Virus record (IMG/VR): IMGVR_UViG_3300044971_002285
Span: 1 to 53,387 of that record
From: a virus
Taxonomy: Duplodnaviria; Caudoviricetes
Reading direction: 5' to 3' (one strand)
Length of the DNA: 53,387 nt
Below are positions 16,086 to 48,138 of this stretch, piece by piece (position 1 is the stretch's first letter; each line of letters starts with the position of its first letter). The position numbers were made by a program, and so were the translations under genes. The notes below the pieces were generated by a model. The model worked only from the letters and a program-made list of their open reading frames with translations, ran no database searches and was not told the DNA's origin.

Positions 16086-16093
16086 TAAATTTG
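16086..16093 (+). promoter_or_regulatory. -7 box TAAATTTG, 4 nt before ATG
   Basis: TAnnTTTG match. Confidence 0.65.
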
Positions 16094-16097
16094 TAGT

Positions 16098-16487
16098 ATG
16101 TCATCTAGTTCTAATAATTGTAATGTCGTCGCAAACGTAAGCATAGCAACCAGGGTTGATATCGTATGTTGGCGAGGTGACACGTTTGTGCTTACCTCTA
16201 CCATTGCTGATGTAGATGGTAACGCTGTTGACCTAAGTGTTTACACTTGGAAAATGGAGGTACGAGAATATGATAATGGACCACTAGTTATTCTTAGCAC
16301 AAACATTACAATTACCGCAACAAACCTCGGTGTTCTTACTGTTACCATTAGTGCCGCAAACATGCTCGTAAACGCAGGAACCTATGTTTACGAAATTCAG
16401 GCTACAAACCCAACCCCTAACCCAGATACCGTGACTACATACTTGTATGGTCAATTCACTGTAACTCAAGATATTACTGCAAACTAA
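16098..16487 (+). CDS. Ig-like/BppU-N-like virion adaptor protein, candidate anchor for the collagen fibre
   Basis: [24 protein letters not shown] pattern; directly precedes the collagen. Confidence 0.65.
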
Positions 16488-16488
16488 A

Positions 16489-19400
16489 ATGGCTGGAGAA
16501 GTTGAAATTACCCTACCTGGACCCCTTGTCGTAGAAATTACCAACAATGGGGTTCAACAGCTCCCTGGCTCACCTGGCACCAAGGGGAGCAAGGGCGATG
16601 CTGGCCCTAAAGGCCAGAAAGGCCTTGCAGGTAAAGGAGATACTGGTGCTAAAGGAAACACCGGCCCCAAGGGAGACACTGGCGCTGGTACCAAGGGTAC
16701 CGCTGGTGCTAAGGGCACTACTGGTCCCAAAGGAGACGTCGGACCCAAGGGAGACACTGGTGCTGGCACCAAGGGTACCGCTGGCGCTAAAGGTGCCACT
16801 GGTACTAAAGGAGATGCTGGCGCTAAGGGTGCCACTGGTGCTGGTACTAAGGGTATCACTGGTCCCAAAGGAGACTTAGGTCCTAAAGGAGATGCTGGCG
16901 CTAAGGGTGCCACTGGTGCTGCTGGTAAAGGCGGTGATAAAGGAGAAACTGGTGCTAAGGGAGACCCTGGTGCCAAAGGCGCCACTGGTGCCAAAGGTTC
17001 CACTGGTGCCAAAGGTTCCACTGGTCCTAAAGGAGATACTGGTGCCGCTGGTAAAGGCGGAGACAAGGGAGAACCTGGTTCCAAAGGAGACCCTGGTGCC
17101 AAAGGTTCCACTGGTCCTAAAGGCGCCACTGGTCCTAAAGGAGATACTGGTACCGCTGGTAAAGGCGGAGACAAGGGAGAACCTGGTTCCAAAGGAGACC
17201 CTGGTGCCAAAGGTTCCACTGGTGCCAAAGGAGCTACTGGTCCTAAAGGTGAACCTGGTGCCGCCGGTAAAGGCGGAGACAAAGGAGAAAAAGGTCAAGA
17301 CGGTCTTGCTGGCGCTAAAGGGGCTACTGGCGCCAAAGGCTCCACTGGTCCTAAAGGTGAACCTGGTGTCGCCGGTAAAGGCGGAGACAAAGGAGAGACT
17401 GGCGCCAAGGGTAATACCGGTGCTGGTGCGAAAGGTACCACTGGTCCCAAAGGAGACGTTGGTCCCAAAGGAGAACCTGGTGCTGCCGGTAAAGGCGGTG
17501 ACAAAGGGGCTCCTGGCGATAAAGGAGAAAAAGGTCAGGATGGCATTGCTGGTCCCAAAGGAGCTCCTGGCGCTAAAGGCACCGCTGGTGCCAAGGGCGC
17601 CACTGGTGCCAAAGGCTCTACTGGTGCTGCTGGCAAAGGCGGAGACAAAGGGGAAGCTGGCTCTAAAGGAGAAGCTGGCCCCAAAGGAGATGCTGGTGCT
17701 AAGGGCGCCACTGGTGCCAAAGGTTCCACTGGTCCTAAAGGAGATGGTGGCCCCAAAGGAGAACCCGGCGCTGCTGGTAAAGGCGGAGACAAAGGAGAAA
17801 AAGGCCAAGACGGTGCTACTGGTGCTAAAGGTGCCACTGGCGCTAAAGGGGCTACTGGCCCCAAAGGAGACGTTGGTCCCAAAGGAGAAGCTGGCGCTGC
17901 TGGTAAAGGTGGTGACAAAGGAGAGAAAGGTCAAGATGGTTCCACTGGTGCTAAAGGTTCCACTGGCGCTAAAGGTGTCGCTGGTCCCAAAGGAGATGCT
18001 GGTGCTAAAGGAGCCACTGGTCCCAAAGGTGATTTAGGTCCCAAAGGAGACACTGGCGCCCAAGGCAAGGGCGGAGACAAAGGAGAGAAAGGTCAAGACG
18101 GTGCTACTGGCGCCAAGGGTACCGCTGGTGCTAAAGGTGCCACTGGTCCTAAAGGAGAAGTTGGTCCCAAGGGAGAGGTTGGCGTTAAAGGTGCCGCTGG
18201 TGCTAAAGGCGCTACTGGTCCCAAAGGTGATTTAGGTCCTAAAGGAGACACTGGTGCTCAGGGTAAAGGCGGTGACAAAGGAGAGAAGGGCCAAGATGGC
18301 GCTACTGGTGCTAAGGGTACCGCTGGTGCTAAAGGCGCTACCGGCCCTAAAGGAGAAGTTGGTCCTAAAGGAGATTTAGGTCCCAAAGGAGACACTGGTG
18401 CTAAAGGTGCCACTGGTCCTAAAGGAGATTTAGGTCCCAAAGGAGATACTGGTGCTCAGGGTAAAGGCGGTGACAAAGGAGAGAAGGGCCAAGATGGTGC
18501 TACTGGTGCTAAAGGCACTGCTGGTGCTAAAGGCTCTACTGGTCCCAAGGGAGACATTGGTCCCAAAGGAGATTTAGGTCCTAAAGGAGATGCTGGTGCC
18601 AAAGGCGCCACTGGTCCCAAGGGAGAAGTTGGTGCTAAAGGCGCCACTGGGCCTCAGGGACCTCAGGGAGATATAGGCCTGAAGGGCAATATTGGCGCCA
18701 CTGGCCCCAAGGGTGATTTAGGTCCCAAAGGAGACGTCGGCCCCAAAGGAGATGCTGGTGCTAAAGGAGCTACTGGCCCTAAAGGAGATTTAGGTCCCAA
18801 AGGAGATACTGGTGCCCAGGGCAAAGGCGGTGACAAAGGAGAAAAAGGTCAAGATGGTGCTACTGGCGCCAAGGGTACCGCTGGTGCTAAAGGCTCTACT
18901 GGTCCCAAAGGAGACATTGGTCCCAAAGGAGATGCTGGTGCTAAAGGTGCCGCTGGTGCTAAAGGAGCTACTGGTCCCAAGGGTGATTTAGGTCCCAAAG
19001 GAGACACTGGCGCTCAAGGTAAAGGCGGCGACAAAGGCGAGAAAGGTCAAGAGGGCCCTCTAGGCCCTCAAGGTCCCAAAGGAGACGTTGGTCCCAAAGG
19101 AGAAGTTGGTGCTAAGGGAACCACTGGTGCCAAGGGCGCTACTGGTCCTAAAGGTGACTTAGGCCCTACTGGCCCTACTGGCCCACAGGGTGCTCAGGGT
19201 AAGGGTGGCGATAAAGGAGAGAAAGGCCAAGATGGTCCTACTGGAGCACAAGGTCCCAAAGGAGACGTTGGTCCCAAAGGGGAAGTTGGTGCCAAGGGAA
19301 CCACTGGTGCTAAGGGCACTACTGGCGCGACTGGCCCTAAAGGCGACTTAGGCCCTACTGGTCCTACTGGTCCTATTGGCCCTACTGGTCCCAAAGGAGA

Positions 19401-22400
19401 TACTGGAGCCAAAGGAGATACTGGTGCCAAGGGAGCCACTGGCCCTACTGGTCCTACTGGTCCTCAAGGCGCTCAAGGTAAAGGCGGTGACAAAGGCGAG
19501 AAAGGTCAAGATGGTCCTACTGGAGCACAAGGTCCTAAAGGAGATGTTGGGCCCAAAGGAGAAGTTGGTGCTAAAGGCGCCACTGGTGCGACTGGTCCTA
19601 AGGGTGACTTAGGCCCTACTGGTCCTACTGGCCCTACTGGTCCTAAAGGAGATACTGGCGCCAAAGGAGATACTGGTGCCAAGGGCGCTACTGGTCCTAC
19701 TGGCCCTCTAGGCCCTCAAGGCCCTATTGGCCCCACTGGTCCTAAAGGAGATGCCGGCGCTAAGGGTACTGCTGGGGCTAAAGGTGCTACTGGTCCCAAA
19801 GGTGACTTAGGTCCCCAGGGTGCCCAAGGTAAAGGTGGTGACAAAGGAGAGAAGGGCCAAGATGGCCCTACTGGAGCACAAGGTCCTACTGGTCCTACTG
19901 GTCCTAAAGGAGATACTGGCGCCAAGGGAACCACTGGCGCCAAGGGTGCTACTGGTCCTACTGGCCCTACTGGTCCTACTGGCCCTCTAGGCCCTCAAGG
20001 CCCTACTGGTCCTACCGGTCCTAAAGGAGATGCTGGTGCCAAAGGTGCCACTGGTCCTACTGGCCCTACTGGTCCTCAAGGTGCTCAAGGTAAAGGCGGA
20101 GACAAAGGCGAGAAAGGTCAAGATGGCCCTACTGGCCCTCAAGGTCCCACTGGTGCTAAAGGAGCTACTGGTGCCAAGGGTAATACTGGAGCACAAGGCC
20201 CTACTGGACCTCAAGGTGCTCAAGGCGCAAAAGGTAACACTGGAGCACAAGGTCCTCAAGGTGCTCAGGGTGCTAAGGGTGCTCAAGGCGCTCAAGGCGC
20301 TACTGGACCTAAGGGTGACTTAGGTCCTACTGGACCTACTGGTCCTCAAGGTGCCCAGGGCAAAGGTGGTGACAAAGGAGAGAAGGGTCAAGAGGGCCCT
20401 CTAGGTCCTCAAGGCCCTCAAGGTCCTACTGGTGCCAAGGGTAATACTGGAGCACAAGGTCCCACTGGCCCTCAAGGAGCTCAAGGCGCAAAGGGTAATA
20501 CTGGAGCACAAGGTCCTCAAGGCGCTCAGGGTGCTCAAGGCGCTCAGGGTGCTACTGGACCTAAGGGTGACTTAGGTCCCACTGGTCCTACTGGTCCTTT
20601 AGGCCCTCAAGGTCCTATTGGCCCTACTGGTCCTACTGGTGCCAAGGGTAATACTGGAGCACAAGGTCCCACTGGTCCTACTGGTCCTCAAGGTGCTCAG
20701 GGTAAGGGTGGCGACAAGGGAGAGAAAGGTCAAGATGGCCCCACTGGTCCGCAAGGAGCACAAGGTCCTACTGGTGCCAAGGGTAATACTGGAGCACAAG
20801 GCCCTACTGGACCTCAAGGTGCTCAAGGCGCAAAGGGTAACACTGGAGCTCAAGGCCCTACTGGACCTACTGGCCCTACTGGTCCTAAAGGAGATGCTGG
20901 TGCTAAAGGCGCTACTGGCGCTCAAGGCCCTCAAGGAGCACAAGGTCCTACTGGTGCTAAGGGTAACACTGGAGCTCAAGGCGCTACTGGTCCTACTGGT
21001 CCTAAAGGAGATTTAGGTCCTACTGGTCCTACTGGTCCTTTGGGCCCTCAAGGTCCTATTGGCCCTACTGGTCCTACTGGTGCCAAGGGTAATACTGGAG
21101 CACAAGGTCCTACTGGCCCTACTGGCCCTCAAGGTGCCCAAGGTAAAGGTGGTGACAAAGGAGAGAAAGGTCAAGAAGGACCCCTAGGCCCTCAAGGCCC
21201 TCAAGGTCCTACTGGTGCCAAGGGTAATACTGGAGCACAAGGCCCTACTGGTCCTACTGGTCCTCTGGGACCTCAAGGTCCTCAAGGCGCAAAAGGTAAC
21301 ACTGGAGCTCAAGGTCCTCAGGGTGCTCAAGGCCCTAAGGGCGACTTAGGTCCCACTGGTCCTACTGGTCCTTTAGGCCCTCAAGGTCCTATTGGCCCTA
21401 CTGGTCCTACTGGTGCTAAGGGTAACACTGGAGCACAAGGTCCTCAAGGCGCTCAGGGTGCTCAAGGCGCTCAAGGCGCTACTGGACCTAAGGGTGACTT
21501 AGGTCCTACTGGACCTACTGGTCCTCAAGGTGCCCAGGGCAAAGGTGGTGACAAAGGAGAGAAAGGTCAAGAGGGCCCTCTAGGCCCTCAAGGCCCTCAA
21601 GGTCCTACTGGTCCCAAGGGTAACACTGGCGCTCAAGGTCCTGCTGGCCCTACTGGTCCTCTGGGACCTCAAGGTCCTACTGGTGCCAAGGGTAATACTG
21701 GAGCACAAGGTCCTACTGGTCCTACTGGTCCTCTGGGACCTCAAGGTCCTCAAGGCGCAAAAGGTAACACTGGAGCTCAAGGTCCTCAGGGTGCTCAAGG
21801 CCCTAAGGGTGACTTAGGTCCCACTGGTCCTACTGGTCCTTTAGGCCCTCAAGGTCCTATTGGCCCTACTGGTCCTACTGGTGCCAAGGGCAATACTGGA
21901 GCGCAAGGTCCTGCTGGACCCACTGGTCCCCTAGGCCCTCAAGGTCCTGCTGGCCCTACGGGTCCTCAAGGTGCTCAGGGTGCGAAAGGTAACACTGGAG
22001 CACAAGGTGCTCAAGGTGCTCAAGGCCCTATTGGTCCTACTGGCCCTACTGGTGCCAAGGGTAACACTGGCGCTCAAGGCCCTACTGGTCCTACTGGTCC
22101 TCAAGGTGCCCAGGGCAAAGGTGGTGACAAAGGAGAGAAGGGTCAAGAGGGCCCTCTAGGTCCTCAGGGTCCCACTGGTCCTACTGGTCCTTTGGGCCCT
22201 CAAGGTCCTGCTGGCCCTACTGGTCCTCAAGGTGCTCAAGGCGCAAAAGGTAATACTGGAGCACAAGGTGCTCAAGGCGCTCAGGGTGCTCAAGGTCCTG
22301 CTGGTCCTACTGGTCCTCTAGGCCCTCAAGGTCCTACTGGTCCTACTGGTGCTAAGGGTAACACTGGCGCACAAGGCCCTGCTGGACCTACTGGTCCTCT

Positions 22401-22908
22401 GGGCCCTCAAGGTCCTGCTGGTCCTCAAGGTCCTGCTGGCGCTAAGGGTAACACTGGAGCACAAGGCCCTGCTGGACCTACTGGTCCTCTAGGCCCTCAA
22501 GGTCCTGCTGGTCCGCAAGGAGCAAAGGGTAATACTGGAGCACAAGGCCCTGCCGGACCTACTGGTCCGCAAGGTGCTCAAGGTAAAGGTGGTGACAAAG
22601 GAGAGAAAGGTCAAGAAGGACCTCTAGGCCCTCAAGGGCCCACTGGTCCTAAGGGTAATACTGGAGCACAAGGTCCGGCTGGACCTACTGGTCCTCAAGG
22701 TGCCAAGGGTAACACTGGCGCACAGGGTCCTACTGGTGCAACTGGTGCTAAAGGCTCTACTGGTCCTACTGGAGCAGGTTCATTCACTGCTGCGGGGGCC
22801 GTGGGTATGTTTACTAGCGTTCCAGATGACTCCGGATTCACCGGACCGGAGGGATGGATAACATTCACCATAAGCGGTACTTCATACGCAGTCCCCGCAT
22901 GGAAATAA
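16489..22908 (+). CDS. Giant collagen-like fibre protein (2139 aa)
   Basis: About 2070 aa of nearly uninterrupted Gly-X-Y between short N- and C-terminal non-collagen ends. Confidence 0.95.
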
Positions 22909-22928
22909 CAGACCATACGTGATAAATA

Positions 22929-22960
22929 AGGGCGCCCCAAAAGGCGCCCTATTTGTTTTG
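22929..22960 (+). terminator. Intrinsic terminator after collagen
   Basis: AGGGCGCC-CCAAAA-GGCGCCCT followed by ATTTGTTTTG. Confidence 0.7.
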
Positions 22961-22975
22961 TGTAAGCTAAATGCC

Positions 22976-22983
22976 TATATTTG
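22976..22983 (+). promoter_or_regulatory. -7 box TATATTTG for the oxygenase/glycosyltransferase operon
   Basis: TAnnTTTG match. Confidence 0.65.
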
Positions 22984-23002
22984 ATGACTAAATTGAATTG
23001 AC

Positions 23003-23557
23003 ATGATGCTAAATGCTTTCATCGTAGACGGATTCTACGACAATCCAGATGAGGTACGTGCATTTGCCCTAGGCCAAGAGTTCAACGTAACTGGTAATTT
23101 TCCAGGTGCTAGGACGAAAAGCTTTTCTAATCAAAGCATCTTCGATACCCTTCAATCAATAGTAGGGCCTCAAGCGGGTAAAATTGATTATTATCCAGAG
23201 AACTACAACGGAGCATACCAGATAACAACAGCTAAAGACCGTTCTTGGATACACGCAGATATTGGCACAAAGTGGGCCGGCATCGTTTACCTAACCCCTA
23301 ATGCTCCATTATCTAGTGGCACTGGGTTCTTTAGACATAAGGACTCTGGACTAACATGGTCTGCTGACGGACAGGGAGATTGGAATGCAGACTCTCAGGA
23401 CATGACCAAGTGGGATTTGACAGCATCCATAGGGAACATGTACAACCGATTGATATTGTACCGCGGTAAGCAGTTTCACTCGTCTCTTGATTATTTCGGC
23501 AACAGCTTAGAAAACGGGAGACTGTTCCAGACATTTTTCTTTTCAACCGAGGAATGA
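23003..23557 (+). CDS. 2OG-Fe(II) oxygenase-fold protein (DUF6445-like)
   Basis: IVDGFYDNP, HAD (HxD), WAGIVYL, GTGFF, YNRLILY..FHS, RLFQTFF. Confidence 0.8.
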   Translation: MMLNAFIVDGFYDNPDEVRAFALGQEFNVTGNFPGARTKSFSNQSIFDTLQSIVGPQAGKIDYYPENYNGAYQITTAKDRSWIHADIGTKWAGIVYLTPNAPLSSGTGFFRHKDSGLTWSADGQGDWNADSQDMTKWDLTASIGNMYNRLILYRGKQFHSSLDYFGNSLENGRLFQTFFFSTEE

Positions 23558-25881
23558 ACGTAGTCTTTCACGTTGGTTACTACGCCACACCTTGGAACGC
23601 AACTGCTGGAATCCCCGGAGGGACAGAGCAGTGCATTGTAAACCTATCAAAACAGCTGGGCCTACTCGGTCATAATGTCTACATATATGGCAATGTATTA
23701 GAAGAAGAAATTAAATTTTCATCCGGCTCTGTTTCATTCCTGTCGCTTGGCTCTAAGGCCAAGCTCCCTGAGCTCATTGATATTCTTGTTGGAGTGTCGT
23801 ATTTACACTATCTAAAATATTTCCCCCAACAAAAGGTCGGCTCAAGAATATTTTGGCTACACAACGAGGAACCATTTTTTTGGTTTGAAGGCCAAAAAAT
23901 GTCTGATGCCGACATTGAATATGCCTTTGAAAATACTGACTTATTTGTCTGCCTTACTGATTGGCATAAATCTGATTTTCAGAAAAGACACCCTAAGACT
24001 ATTGGAAAAATCAAAGTCATTGGGAATGGAATAGATGAGCAAAAAATACACAAGACAACTCAAAAGGAAAAAAACTCCTATGTGTATACGTCTCACGCCG
24101 AGCGAGGACTTGGCACCGTGCTTGATGATTTAGAGTCGGGAAAAATATCGGGGCATCTGCATATATGTACCCCTTTGTACGGCATAAAATATTTTAACGA
24201 CCACTTCTTAGAAAGGATATCCGGGAAATCAAATGTCACATACTACGGGTCCCTGTCTACCGAACAGCTCTATTTTCTGCTCAGCAAGATGGAGAACTGG
24301 TACTACCCAACTGCCTACAACGAGACCTACTGCATTACTGCTATTGAAATGCTGGCACATGAGGTAAAGCCAATTGTAAATGCTGTTGCGGGTCTTTCTG
24401 ATACGCTTAAAGAATTTGCAAGCGATACAAGCTGCCTGGAGTGTGTAAGGAAATATGTAGAAACAAGGTGGTGGAGCAATGTTGCAAAAGAGTGGGTTTC
24501 TTTATTTTCTGAATCTACTTTTAAGAAATGGCCAAATAAAATAATTGGCCAGGCCCCAACTCATTTGCTTCAAAACATAACGTTTATTCCTAATTATGAT
24601 GTTGACCAAGTATATATAATTTCCCTATCAAGCGAGGAAGAGAATTCTAGCAAGTTAATAGAGAAATTTGCAAATTCTGGAATAAGGTCAAAATCTGTTG
24701 TGGTGTTTGACGCAACAAATGGCTATACCAATTATTTAATGCCTGAGGTTACCGTGTCAAGCTCATGGAAAATAGAGAGTGACAATAAATGGTGGAACCG
24801 CGACGTCACGCCAGGAGAAGTTGGCTGTGCCGTATCCCATTGGAGGGTGTGGAAAGATGCGCATAAAAATGGGTATAAACGAATACTGGTCCTTGAAGAA
24901 GACTTTACCGTTCTTCGTAAGTTTGACCGAGCCCAGATTGCTAAATGTGGAGAAAACTGGACCCTGTTTTTTCTGGGTCACTGCTTCATACGGCCACCCC
25001 GCCGGGACGTAACAGAAAACATTGTTGAGCCTGACTTTACCTATAATGCCCACGCATATATGCTTTCAGATGTCGGCTGTAAGCTGTTGCTAGACCAAAA
25101 TTTTGACCAATCAATAATCCCAGTAGATGAGTTTTTATCTGCTACCTTCTGCGACCACCCCCGGGGAGACTTGCAAAAAATAAATCAAACTAGTAAGGCT
25201 TTAGCACTAGTTCCTGCTATCTTTGGTCAAACAAGCAATAAAGAAACGTCTACCACCGAAAACAAACCTAAAATAAATAAAATGAACCTTTGCGACTATC
25301 CTTATGATGAATTTGTCAAGCGCTTTGTAACGTATTCCGCGCAGACTAAAGAGTGGGAGTTAATTGTTGACGAACCGATTGCTGATGTCTTTATATTTCC
25401 CTTGTTTACTGAGGAATTCTGTAGCCTGCTAATAAAGCAGGCAGAAGAATCTCAAAAATGGACTAGGAATAGGCATGCCCACTATCCCACGTGCGATATG
25501 CTAATTAACGAACTTGGACTTGCCTCTCTTTATCATAGGGTCTTGGAGGATTTTGTTTATCCTGTTGCAATCCAAAAATGGGCACTAGAGGGAAAGGAAT
25601 GGCCCACTATGTCAAGTGAAAATTTTATTATCAAATATGATAAATCCATTCAAGGCCATTTGTCGTTGCACCACGACAGCGCTTCGATATCTATGGTCCT
25701 AGCCCTTAACGAGGACTACGAAGGTGGCGGCACCTATTTCTGGAGGCAAAAGGAATTACACAAAGGAAAAACCGGATATATATCTATTCACCCTTCCGTA
25801 ATCACTCATCGACATGGAGCAAGGGCGGTGACAAAAGGTCAACGATTTGTTCTTGTATCATTCTGTAATCGCAATAAATAA
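23554..25881 (+). CDS. Three-domain fusion: GT4-like glycosyltransferase + GT25 (COLGALT-like) + PLOD-like 2OG-Fe(II) lysyl hydroxylase
   Basis: GGTE, YTSHAERGL, ETYCITAIE; DQVYIISL, RDVTPGEVGCAVSHWRVWK, LVLEEDF; DEPIADVFIFPLFTEEFC, YPTCD, FIIKY..LSLHHDSAS..ALNEDYEGGGTYF..HP..THRH..RFVLVSF. Confidence 0.88.
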   Translation: MNVVFHVGYYATPWNATAGIPGGTEQCIVNLSKQLGLLGHNVYIYGNVLEEEIKFSSGSVSFLSLGSKAKLPELIDILVGVSYLHYLKYFPQQKVGSRIFWLHNEEPFFWFEGQKMSDADIEYAFENTDLFVCLTDWHKSDFQKRHPKTIGKIKVIGNGIDEQKIHKTTQKEKNSYVYTSHAERGLGTVLDDLESGKISGHLHICTPLYGIKYFNDHFLERISGKSNVTYYGSLSTEQLYFLLSKMENWYYPTAYNETYCITAIEMLAHEVKPIVNAVAGLSDTLKEFASDTSCLECVRKYVETRWWSNVAKEWVSLFSESTFKKWPNKIIGQAPTHLLQNITFIPNYDVDQVYIISLSSEEENSSKLIEKFANSGIRSKSVVVFDATNGYTNYLMPEVTVSSSWKIESDNKWWNRDVTPGEVGCAVSHWRVWKDAHKNGYKRILVLEEDFTVLRKFDRAQIAKCGENWTLFFLGHCFIRPPRRDVTENIVEPDFTYNAHAYMLSDVGCKLLLDQNFDQSIIPVDEFLSATFCDHPRGDLQKINQTSKALALVPAIFGQTSNKETSTTENKPKINKMNLCDYPYDEFVKRFVTYSAQTKEWELIVDEPIADVFIFPLFTEEFCSLLIKQAEESQKWTRNRHAHYPTCDMLINELGLASLYHRVLEDFVYPVAIQKWALEGKEWPTMSSENFIIKYDKSIQGHLSLHHDSASISMVLALNEDYEGGGTYFWRQKELHKGKTGYISIHPSVITHRHGARAVTKGQRFVLVSFCNRNK

Positions 25882-26480
25882 TGAATCTTAATCCCACATT
25901 CCCAAAAGAAAACGGTCCAGACATGACCGGTTGGTACTTTTTTGAGGCTGCCTTTAGCCCCCTAGAAGTTGTTCAAATCAAAAATGAATTGGCTACCATC
26001 CCCTTTCACAGGGCGCAAATTGCCAGTAATGCCGAGGGCGATGCTCTTGATGTTGTAAGGAAATCAAATATAAAATGGATTCCTAAAAACGAAACACACG
26101 GGTGGCTCTATGACCGGCTCATGCAGTATATGTCCATTGCCAATAACAACCTGTGGCATTTTAATCTTGAGTCTATTCTTGATTCAATACAATACACGCA
26201 ATACCACGGAAACGAAAAGGGTTTTTACGGGTGGCACATGGATATCGGACCACAGGAATTGGCATTTAGAAAGCTCTCCCTTGTTGTCCAACTTAGCAAC
26301 CCTTCCGACTACTCGGGTGGGGACCTTCAAATACGTTCAGGCCATGGCGAAGCAACAGTTTCAAAAACTCAAGGTACGGTAATTGTTTTTCCATCATATC
26401 TGCTTCATCAGGTGACGCCTGTTACCGGTGGACTTCGAGAGTCTCTAGTGCTTTGGTCGGGGGGCAACAGCTATAAATAG
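25881..26480 (+). CDS. 2OG-Fe(II) oxygenase, prolyl-4-hydroxylase/PKHD-type
   Basis: YGWHMD, RKLSLVVQLS, YSGGDL, VFPSYLLHQVTPVTGGLRESLVLW. Confidence 0.88.
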   Translation: MNLNPTFPKENGPDMTGWYFFEAAFSPLEVVQIKNELATIPFHRAQIASNAEGDALDVVRKSNIKWIPKNETHGWLYDRLMQYMSIANNNLWHFNLESILDSIQYTQYHGNEKGFYGWHMDIGPQELAFRKLSLVVQLSNPSDYSGGDLQIRSGHGEATVSKTQGTVIVFPSYLLHQVTPVTGGLRESLVLWSGGNSYK

Positions 26481-46950: not shown

Positions 46951-47181
46951 ATGGCTATTGCCGAAAAAAAACGTCCAATGGAATGGGAATACTACACCAA
47001 CCAGAGTAAGAGAGAGGAGATTGATAATCTCCTCCAGCAGGCAGCATCTTTGTTTGCCAACTGCGACTCGACCCCTGAAGCGAAGGTAATTGCTCGTAAG
47101 CGCGAGAAAGATATACTGCGGAAGGTTGCTAAGATAGACAGCTTCTTCGCGGAACGCTGCGGCTGCAACGAGCTATACTAA
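46951..47181 (+). CDS. Small hypothetical protein
   Basis: ORF; ATG 46951 preferred over TTG 46936. Confidence 0.7.
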   Translation: MAIAEKKRPMEWEYYTNQSKREEIDNLLQQAASLFANCDSTPEAKVIARKREKDILRKVAKIDSFFAERCGCNELY

Positions 47182-48138
47182 TCCCTTTAGCCGCTCCTTG
47201 TTTATCAAGGATATATCGTAGTGCTTCTTGCAGTACTCGTATAACTCTCCAGCAAGGTTTTGCGCTTTCTCAAGGGTCATCTCTTTAACAGCTGTCCTCC
47301 AGTCCTCTGGGGTCGAGCATATTATGCCCGTCTTGTTGTGAATCACCGCCTCCTTATATGGGGTGACGTTTGACACTATGATTGCTGTCTTGGTATACCC
47401 TGCCTCTATCACCTTTAGGTTGGACTTACACCTGTTGAATTTGGTGTTTATTATTGGCGATAACGACACATCAAAGTGTCGGTAGAGCTGCGCATATAGA
47501 TGGATGTCCTTTGGATACATCGTGTATTTAGCACGAAGAATATCCGGATAGTCCATAAGGTTCATGCAGTATAGCTCGTAGTCTTCAAAGGTCATCCCCA
47601 TTGATAGCAAATCCTTCTGATGCCCGTTAGCACCTAAATATCCAAAGCGAACCAGCCCATTGGGGTTTGGGTCTTTCTCTTGGTCAGCCCACTGCTCTTC
47701 CTGCTCATGCACGGTGTTGGGGATAATCCTGTAAGGTATATTTTTATTTACCTTTCGCATCTTATGGGCGAGCGCCTCAGAGGGTGTCCATATCTCATCG
47801 GCAATCCTAATGGTTGCTAGAATCTCGCGGGATATCTGCTTTTTGTATACCTCCTTTGCGGGGTTGTCATCGGGCAGCACCCAGTAGTCGTCGTTGTCGA
47901 GGATAAGCTTCACCTTGTATCCCTTTAGCCAACGCTTAAAGGACCCGTAGTTGGAGACGGTACACCTTCTAGATACTACCACGCTACCAACCTTTGTCAT
48001 ATCAAATTCCTTGAGCTCATCGAAGCTCGAGAAAAAGTGTATGTTGATTCCTTCTTCTGCCTTTAGGCGAAGAAACGGGGTCATCAATCTGTGGTAGTTG
48101 ATGCCGTTTAGGCCATCAAGAAATATCAGAGTTATCAT
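47173..48138 (-). CDS. GT-B (GT4-like) glycosyltransferase
   Basis: YHRL..P, LDNDDYW, FNRCKSNLKVIEAG, SNVTPY. Confidence 0.85.
   Translation of the reverse strand: MITLIFLDGLNGINYHRLMTPFLRLKAEEGINIHFFSSFDELKEFDMTKVGSVVVSRRCTVSNYGSFKRWLKGYKVKLILDNDDYWVLPDDNPAKEVYKKQISREILATIRIADEIWTPSEALAHKMRKVNKNIPYRIIPNTVHEQEEQWADQEKDPNPNGLVRFGYLGANGHQKDLLSMGMTFEDYELYCMNLMDYPDILRAKYTMYPKDIHLYAQLYRHFDVSLSPIINTKFNRCKSNLKVIEAGYTKTAIIVSNVTPYKEAVIHNKTGIICSTPEDWRTAVKEMTLEKAQNLAGELYEYCKKHYDISLINKERLKGLV

Follow-up and report, generated by a model that had tools for sequence, protein, structure and literature searches.

Do the viruses of bacteria build modified collagens with enzymes of their own? This question is raised by a 53,387-base stretch of DNA from a tailed phage (IMG/VR record IMGVR_UViG_3300044971_002285; the whole stretch is called the window here), in which the gene of a giant collagen-like protein, P0002, is followed directly by the genes of three predicted modifying enzymes, P0003, P0004 and P0005. 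The phage is an uncultured podovirus, the genome of which is nearly complete (91% according to CheckV). We consider it likely that the lysines of the phage collagen are hydroxylated and glycosylated by the phage's own enzymes, as is supported by homology, by intact active sites and by a very strongly conserved synteny.

The initial annotation of this locus had described a 2139-amino acid (aa) Gly-X-Y protein with hundreds of X-Lys-Gly sites, three 2-oxoglutarate (2OG)-Fe(II) oxygenase domains and two glycosyltransferase domains, all of which were recovered. In the open reading frame (ORF) of P0002 the Gly-X-Y sequence is uninterrupted between approximately residues 27 and 2097; runs of six or more triplets account for 683 triplets, and 727 of the 2139 residues are Gly. 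Of the 231 Lys residues, 230 are followed by Gly, and 205 G-X-K-G sites are present, among them GAK (81), GPK (68), GDK (25) and GEK (19). Pro (266 residues) is almost confined to the X position, with 250 residues after Gly and only 14 before Gly; X-Pro-Gly, the classical site of collagen prolyl 4-hydroxylase, is therefore nearly absent from P0002. The Y position is occupied by Lys in 29% and by Thr in 28% of the triplets. The composition of the protein is polarised along its length: Lys decreases from approximately 30 per 200 residues N-terminally to 8 C-terminally while Pro and Gln increase, and a charged 8-residue motif occurs 23 times with a spacing that grows from 36 to 192 residues. The three oxygenase domains were assigned to P0003, to the C-terminal part of P0004 and to P0005. 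Both glycosyltransferase domains lie in P0004: one belongs to family GT25 and scores above the Pfam cut-off, and the other was recognized as GT4 by its GT-B fold and EX7E motif.

P0004 (775 aa) is a fusion of GT4, GT25 and lysyl hydroxylase (LH) domains. Its AlphaFold2 (AF2) model, with a predicted local distance difference test (pLDDT) score of 85.1, displays three domains that are separated by disordered linkers at residues 323-346 and 564-575. When the domains were compared with PLOD3 (LH3), L230 of mimivirus and COLGALT1, as had been proposed with the first reading of the locus, both phmmer and Foldseek returned matches with intact catalytic residues. In the phmmer search against PDB, residues 594-772 matched mimivirus L230 (6ax6, E 1.2e-20) and human LH3 (6fxk, E 2.7e-20), and in Foldseek the LH domain was superimposed on 6ax6_B with a TMt of 0.83 and a root-mean-square deviation of 2.8 A over 210 columns at 29% identity. 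H706, D708, H754 and R764 of P0004 align with the iron triad HxD...H and the 2OG-binding Arg of LH3. For the whole P0004 model, LH3 was the first Foldseek match (E 1.4e-19), followed by L230 and COLGALT1 (E 8.7e-15), and the second match in BFVD was a procollagen-lysine 5-dioxygenase of Megavirus.

The GT25 domain (PF01755, 48.6 bits against a cut-off of 24) matched COLGALT1 with E-values of 1e-14 to 2.1e-15 over P0004 residues of approximately 351-539 (COLGALT1 approximately 312-510), whereas bacterial GT25 structures reached only 0.005-0.1. According to the available text of PMC12003778, residues essential in COLGALT1 are E435 and D437 of the metal motif (EDD), G408, G411 and C412 of the uridine pocket and Asp522. 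They correspond in P0004 to E448/D450, G421/G424/C425 and D525. The Foldseek matches of the GT4 domain were MshA, glycogen synthases, the alpha-1,2-glucosyltransferase tll1591, BshA and WaaG (E 1e-10 to 1e-13), and a sequence search against PDB with the GT4 domain alone gave E-values of 0.19 or worse. Across 16 relatives of P0004 with 33-81% identity, H706, D708, H754, R764, E448, D450, D525, G421, G424, C425 and the two glutamates of the EX7E motif, E257 and E265, do not vary. In the protein database P0004 has 108 relatives, of which 85 span at least 97% of its length, and the GT4-GT25-LH single-chain fusion occurs in at least 85 protein clusters; stand-alone LH proteins of approximately 202 aa and GT25-LH forms exist as well. 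The names given to these relatives in the source annotations stop at 'GR25 family glycosyltransferase'. A megablast search of the enzyme region against cultured phages returned no match.

In IMG/VR, 289 contigs encode a relative of P0004; 80 of these were fetched and, with three others, 83 loci were examined, comprising 670 kb of upstream and 534 kb of downstream sequence, in which an ORF with at least 15 triplets was scored as a collagen. A collagen on the same strand was detected upstream in 64 of the 83 loci and downstream in none of them, and when only loci with 5 kb or more of upstream sequence are counted, it was present in 56 of 66. The co-occurrence expected in the initial annotation is thus the rule among homologous operons. 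Of the 19 loci without a collagen, 9 have less than 2.5 kb of upstream sequence and the other 10 belong to a myovirus-type clade. In a second myovirus-type clade the gene order is giant collagen, P0005 homologue, GT2-like gene, fusion and neck genes. The collagens of independent contigs measure 1000-2200 aa, and in the closest relatives that lack the enzymes a collagen is absent (L001) or limited to a stretch of 15 triplets (L002). Among 185,579 prokaryote species, represented by one genome each, a single full-length relative was found, on a Flavobacteriaceae contig of a metagenome-assembled genome (MAG), again with collagens upstream.

Lys was found at the Y position in all 42 of the composition rows, at 4-10% in the deepest branches and 16-65% elsewhere, whereas Thr is absent from the Y position (0%) in some rows, including clades that keep the GT4 domain. 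This constancy of Lys, together with the loss of Thr in clades with GT4, argues for Lys and not Thr as the common target. Related cassettes are also present in the cultured phages S-PRM1, S-CAM9 and CRP-6. In Synechococcus virus S-PRM1 (L099, 1851-10692), gp158 contains 59 collagen triplets, 23 of them with Lys at Y; behind it lie two 2OG oxygenases and then a GT25-LH protein. In Roseobacter phage CRP-6 (L100, 1653-7528), the portal gene is followed by a small gene, by fibre genes, one of which has 98 triplets, and by a 590-aa protein that ends in an LH domain. The collagen-bearing gene of CRP-6 is annotated as a tail fibre, and every enzyme gene of S-PRM1 and CRP-6 carries either the annotation 'hypothetical' or a generic oxygenase label. 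As a separate observation, in a T4-like clade the P0005 homologue is separated from the GT4-GT25-LH fusion by a 442-aa GT2-like gene (L080:8671-9999), which would be a third sugar-transfer activity.

P0004 is flanked by the two other oxygenases. P0003 matched DUF6445 (PF20043, 42.4 bits against a cut-off of 24, E 1e-10) and phrog_1644 (E 5.5e-36), and its putative iron and 2OG ligands H84, D86, H159 and R173 are invariant in 12 sequences. A sequence search of P0003 against PDB returned no match; with its AF2 model, which is of moderate confidence (pLDDT 65, predicted template modelling score 0.68), the top Foldseek matches were PHD2, OGFOD1 and the prolyl 4-hydroxylase (P4H) of P. putida (E 5e-5, TM 0.4-0.5). 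P0005 matched PF13640 (50 bits against a cut-off of 27, E 6.1e-13) and the PKHD-type hydroxylase 3dkq (E 3.7e-11), and its homologue adjoins the collagen or the enzyme in deep branches as well. The presence of both genes was compared with collagen composition on a rapidly built tree with 41 unique loci, from which duplicate enzyme C-termini and loci without an upstream collagen ORF of at least 40 triplets had been excluded. Loci without a P0005 homologue have 0-3% Pro at the X position and those with one mostly 5-49%. Among podovirus-type loci, Y-position Gln amounts to 12-36% with a P0003 homologue and to 0-6% without. These patterns, which we treat as a lead, suggest that P0005 probably acts on X-position proline and that P0003 may have a target connected with Gln at the Y position.

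From gene content, homology, catalytic residues and synteny we infer which activities and sugars are involved, in which order the steps take place, and where in the virion the fibre lies and what it does there. In the proposed mechanism, collagen chains would be produced in the host cytoplasm, where, before zipping of the triple helix, the C-terminal domain of P0004 would hydroxylate Y-position Lys (X-Lys-Gly) with Fe(II), 2OG and O2. The GT25 domain, inverting by homology, would add a first hexose onto the new hydroxyl, and the GT4 domain, retaining by family, would probably add a second sugar. The result would mimic the Glc-alpha1,2-Gal-beta-hydroxylysine logic of animals with a non-homologous last enzyme. 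Further hydroxylations would come from P0005 and P0003, and the product would be a trimeric, sugar-coated fibre of approximately 0.6 micrometre with its conserved N-terminus on the virion and a small distal knob. A broader proposal, which is tentative and which we regard as rather doubtful, is that in Bacteroidota, cyanobacteria and roseobacters the tailed phages encode a complete collagen maturation of their own for half-micrometre virion fibres. It would comprise Lys hydroxylation, a COLGALT-type sugar, a second sugar from GT4, an X-Pro mark set by P0005 and a Y-Gln-tracking mark dependent on P0003, the last two being hydroxylations that animals do not carry out in such a manner.

Several observations weigh against the proposed mechanism of lysine modification. 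The GT4 domain scored under the Pfam cut-offs (PF13439, Glyco_transf_4, 25.4 bits against 28.5, E 1.7e-5; PF00534, 16.1 against 26.4); the precomputed Pfam matches of many P0004 relatives list PF13439 or PF00534. The acceptor of the GT4 domain, which we purely infer, could be Thr, as in BclA, or another protein. Trp495 in the acceptor crevice of COLGALT1, essential in the human enzyme according to the available text of PMC12003778, is not conserved and aligns with Asn498 of P0004, so that donor or acceptor handling may differ; all members of the phage family share the nearby His500. In ten loci the flanks are complete, yet a collagen is missing inside 10 kb. The whole records of three of these ten contain one 10-12 kb upstream on the same strand (3/3), and a fourth, truncated record contains none; the matches listed by this pattern search read as Gly-X-Y codons, and the reversed pattern is identical and thus provides no control. 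Concerning the flanking oxygenases, the accessible literature gives no known substrate for the PKHD/PiuC type, to which the nearest solved relatives of P0005 belong, and a Gln-rich myovirus-type clade has no detectable P0003 homologue. The covariation of P0005 with Pro and of P0003 with Gln comprises 4 independent contrasts, none of them in the opposite direction, and is not significant (sign test, p 0.125-0.25).

The enzymes might modify the collagen by another chemistry, namely with a single sugar as in L230, by action of GT4 on the Thr of G-P-T as in BclA, or by hydroxylysine cross-links. This would agree with the replacement of Trp495 and with the share of Y-position Thr in the window, and the available texts describe the collagen-like repeats of BclA as glycosylated (PMC8968730) and L230 as attaching glucose directly. 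We nevertheless consider it unlikely, since GT4 is kept where collagens have 0-3% Y-Thr (for example L059, L062, L063 and L065) and the one-chain GT4-GT25-LH arrangement in so many protein clusters suggests sequential action on one site. Still less probable is that the enzymes act elsewhere, on host lipopolysaccharide (LPS) or capsule, on another virion protein or on a host protein, with adjacency to collagen reflecting nothing but shared late expression. GT25 and GT4 are typical envelope-sugar families, Pfam describes GT25 as 'LPS biosynthesis protein', the source annotation reads 'GR25 family glycosyltransferase involved in LPS biosynthesis', and the ten loci without a nearby collagen would fit. 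Against this, COLGALT1 is the best solved GT25 match by a wide interval of E-values (approximately 1e-15 compared with 0.005-0.1), the oxygenase domain is specifically PLOD/L230-like, the collagen lies upstream and never downstream in podovirus- as well as myovirus-type phages, and long collagens are missing from the enzyme-free relatives. That the cassette is a decayed or non-functional acquisition, or that the gene with the giant repeat arose by misassembly, is very improbable: the collagen gene is highly repetitive and the G+C content of the enzyme genes (0.41) lies below that of the genome (approximately 0.47), but all frames are open, the catalytic residues are invariant in 16 sequences down to 33% identity, the module occupies a constant site across a clade with 76-94% identical capsid proteins, and collagens of 1000-2200 aa occur on independent contigs. 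Modification of the collagen lysines by P0004 remains our preferred explanation.

The proposed pathway resembles systems known from giant viruses and animals. L230 is a bifunctional collagen lysyl hydroxylase/hydroxylysine glucosyltransferase of Acanthamoeba polyphaga mimivirus and, together with its Megavirus orthologue, is likewise viral, joins a glycosyltransferase to a PLOD-type LH domain and comes from a virus that encodes collagens too. Mimivirus is an amoebal giant virus, whereas P0004 belongs to a 53-kb bacterial phage. Like LH3, L230 carries an N-terminal GT-A domain; in P0004, GT4 (GT-B) and GT25 precede the LH domain instead, so that its layout is not that of LH3 and L230, and unlike L230 the phage enzyme gene lies directly 3' of the presumed substrate gene. 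With LH3/PLOD3 and GLT25D1/COLGALT1 of animals, P0004 shares both catalytic families, the key residues and X-Lys-Gly as the presumed site, and an inverting-then-retaining order of sugars as in animals is plausible. The animal system is a hetero-complex in the endoplasmic reticulum, whereas P0004 would act as one polypeptide in the bacterial cytoplasm. P0004 also lacks the GT-A and accessory domains of LH3 and the GT1 domain of the two-domain (GT1+GT2) COLGALT1, and an unrelated GT4 would perform the retaining step. With Scl, BclA and the collagens of phage tail fibres, P0002 has in common Pro at X, Thr, Gln or Lys at Y and a fibre stalk with a globular tip; it is far longer than Scl, BclA or the phage segments and is accompanied by a dedicated set of PLOD/COLGALT-type enzymes.

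In the available text of a 2022 review (PMC8968730), prokaryotic collagen-like proteins are described as mostly without these modifications, and phage collagens are mentioned as short segments. From bacterial operons, Iyer et al. (2010) predicted that 2OG dioxygenases and sulfotransferases modify co-encoded collagen-like and tail-collar proteins; as far as the available text goes, these operons follow the same context logic of hydroxylation and further modification of the hydroxyl, and differ in being bacterial and without PLOD- or COLGALT-type domains (PMC2938197). Viral hydroxylation and glycosylation of collagen Lys is described in the searchable literature only for L230 and R699 of mimivirus, and our literature search, which covered texts other than subscription papers and supplements, found no description of Lys hydroxylation or hydroxylysine glycosylation in a phage collagen. 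What would be new is the collagen lysine pathway of animals and giant viruses in tailed phages, with a single GT4-GT25-LH chain encoded beside its substrate and two extra oxygenases. Hydroxylysine-linked glycosylation of collagen is regarded as an animal trait with mimivirus as the sole viral exception, and would be extended to the viruses of bacteria. Under the broader and rather doubtful proposal given above, the PLOD and COLGALT catalytic domains, which are regarded as hallmarks of the metazoan matrix, would be widespread and modular in phages, and phages might have been a reservoir or conduit as these domains evolved. For the production of modified recombinant collagen, the phage family would offer compact enzymes of a single chain that function in the bacterial cytoplasm, and the question arises which role a sugar-coated 0.6-micrometre fibre would have for a 53-kb podovirus. 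The cassettes of the cultured phages S-PRM1, S-CAM9 and CRP-6 make the prediction directly testable. The features of the window are listed in Table 1.

Table 1. Positions of the genes, domains and putative signals discussed for the window.
Feature	Position	Strand	Remarks
TAnnTTTG-preceded gene starts	5742, 6651, 9006, 13626, 16098, 23003, 26499, 27265, 30768, 37326	+	
Large terminase	11484-13586		matches PHROG families of podoviruses
Portal	13626-16076		matches PHROG families of podoviruses
TAAATTTG box	16086-16093		before P0001
P0001, 129 aa	16098..16487	+	directly 5' of the collagen gene; phrog_1084 (unknown function), E 2.7e-18
P0002, 2139-aa collagen-like fibre protein	16489..22908	+	N-terminal segment of ~26 aa, Gly-X-Y of ~2070 aa, C-terminal knob of 42 aa
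Terminator-like hairpin	22929..22950	+	8 pairs (7 G-C), then T-rich run; just 3' of the collagen stop
Promoter-like site TTTG-N20-TATATTTG	22952..22983	+	ends 20 nucleotides before the P0003 ATG; presumed Bacteroidota-type consensus
P0003, 184 aa, DUF6445, 2OG-Fe(II) oxygenase	23003..23557	+	H84, D86, H159, R173
P0004, 775 aa, GT4-GT25-LH fusion	23554-25881	+	
P0004 residues 1-322, GT4-type retaining GT-B domain	23554..24519	+	EX7E: E257, E265
P0004 residues 347-563, GT25 domain	24592..25242	+	homologue of GT2, the catalytic domain of COLGALT1
P0004 residues 576-775, PLOD/L230-type collagen LH domain	25279..25878	+	H706, D708, H754, R764
P0005, 199 aa, P4H/PKHD-type 2OG-Fe(II) oxygenase	25881..26480	+	H119, D121, H176, R186
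Two small ORFs, 106 and 125 aa	26499..27196	+	phrog_7595, phrog_14910, both families of unknown function
Additional glycosyltransferase gene	47173-48138	-	phrog_7162, E 2.1e-40

The triple helix rises by approximately 0.29 nm per residue, so that the roughly 2070 Gly-X-Y residues of P0002 would form a helix of approximately 0.6 micrometre. The N-terminal 25-55 residues are conserved in podovirus-type relatives and end in a QLPG(S/A)KG-like motif at the helix entry, which was found in 16 loci. The C-termini vary among relatives and comprise knobs of 27-50 aa, domains of approximately 145 aa with a weak likeness to BclA_C (E 0.0058, under the cut-off), Peptidase_S74 and larger domains of unknown type; Peptidase_S74, the endosialidase chaperone, was present on 3 of the 6 C-terminal tips tested. 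Phage fibres are usually built with a constant N-terminus and exchangeable tips, and P0002 is best read as a fibre of the virion, with an anchor at the conserved N-terminus and tips at the C-terminus that can be swapped. In one close relative (L003:3-2603), the flanking enzyme genes are 95-100% identical to those of the window, yet the collagen has 16% Y-Lys and another C-terminal knob, which indicates that the fibre gene evolves much faster than its neighbours.

Behind the portal gene, the window contains, in this order, P0001, P0002, the genes P0003-P0004-P0005, the pair of small ORFs and two genes that resemble those of a scaffold (367 aa) and a capsid protein (464 aa). The annotated relatives nearest to the window have genes of approximately 350 and 460 aa straight after the portal, and the module of approximately 11 kb is therefore extra relative to them. 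The same module is found in the same order and at the same site throughout a clade with portals of 59-88% and capsid proteins of 76-94% identity, in which it constitutes a fibre module of a small protein, a giant collagen and modifying enzymes between the portal and the scaffold/capsid genes. The two small ORFs, which had no match in a Pfam scan, are kept as a pair at the same site across the podovirus clade. Base composition varies along the window, with a G+C content of 0.53-0.57 in the collagen gene and the value of 0.41 given above for the enzyme genes measured at 24001-26000. The additional glycosyltransferase gene is not near the fibre module but among the genes of the early/replication arm.

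The closest cultured relatives by terminase and portal are Flavobacterium (Elemovirus) and Cellulophaga phages, with a terminase identity of 39-47%. Boxes with the sequence TAnnTTTG, which we take to be the -7 element of Bacteroidota, were counted by hand 5-30 nucleotides before at least 10 plus-strand gene starts (5693-46938). Their raw number is not enriched (43 found, 36 expected) and only the placement before gene starts stands out, which fits Bacteroidota-type late promoters. Together with the phage relatives and the Flavobacteriaceae MAG contig, these boxes point to a host among the Bacteroidota.

The initial annotation had further assigned the three enzyme genes to an operon with its own promoter. 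The genes overlap by 4 nucleotides (P0003/P0004) and by 1 (P0004/P0005), and the 94-nucleotide spacer between the collagen gene and P0003 holds the terminator-like hairpin and the promoter-like site. The composite pattern of this site occurs 3 times in the window against an expectation of 1.22, which is no enrichment, and a sigma-70 scan revealed no convincing promoter 5' of the enzyme genes. No terminator was found 3' of P0005, so that the three genes may belong to a longer late transcript that continues into the head genes.

P0001 is a beta-sandwich-like small protein with a weak match to the Ig-like Invasin_D3 family in Pfam (E 0.026) and an atlas lead to a BppU-N/LtfC-like cluster, in which the family is present in 11% of the members. 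A homologue stands immediately 5' of the collagen in most podovirus-type loci, and P0001 is a possible fibre adaptor or attachment protein. A complex prediction of P0001 with residues 1-45 of P0002 (score 0.02, mark 0.32) was uninformative either way on this role. Most of the P0001 homologues (L008-L046) start Cys-rich, with 4-5 Cys in the first 13 residues, and the copy in the window has only one Cys; the Cys-rich start is possibly a metal site or a disulphide knot.

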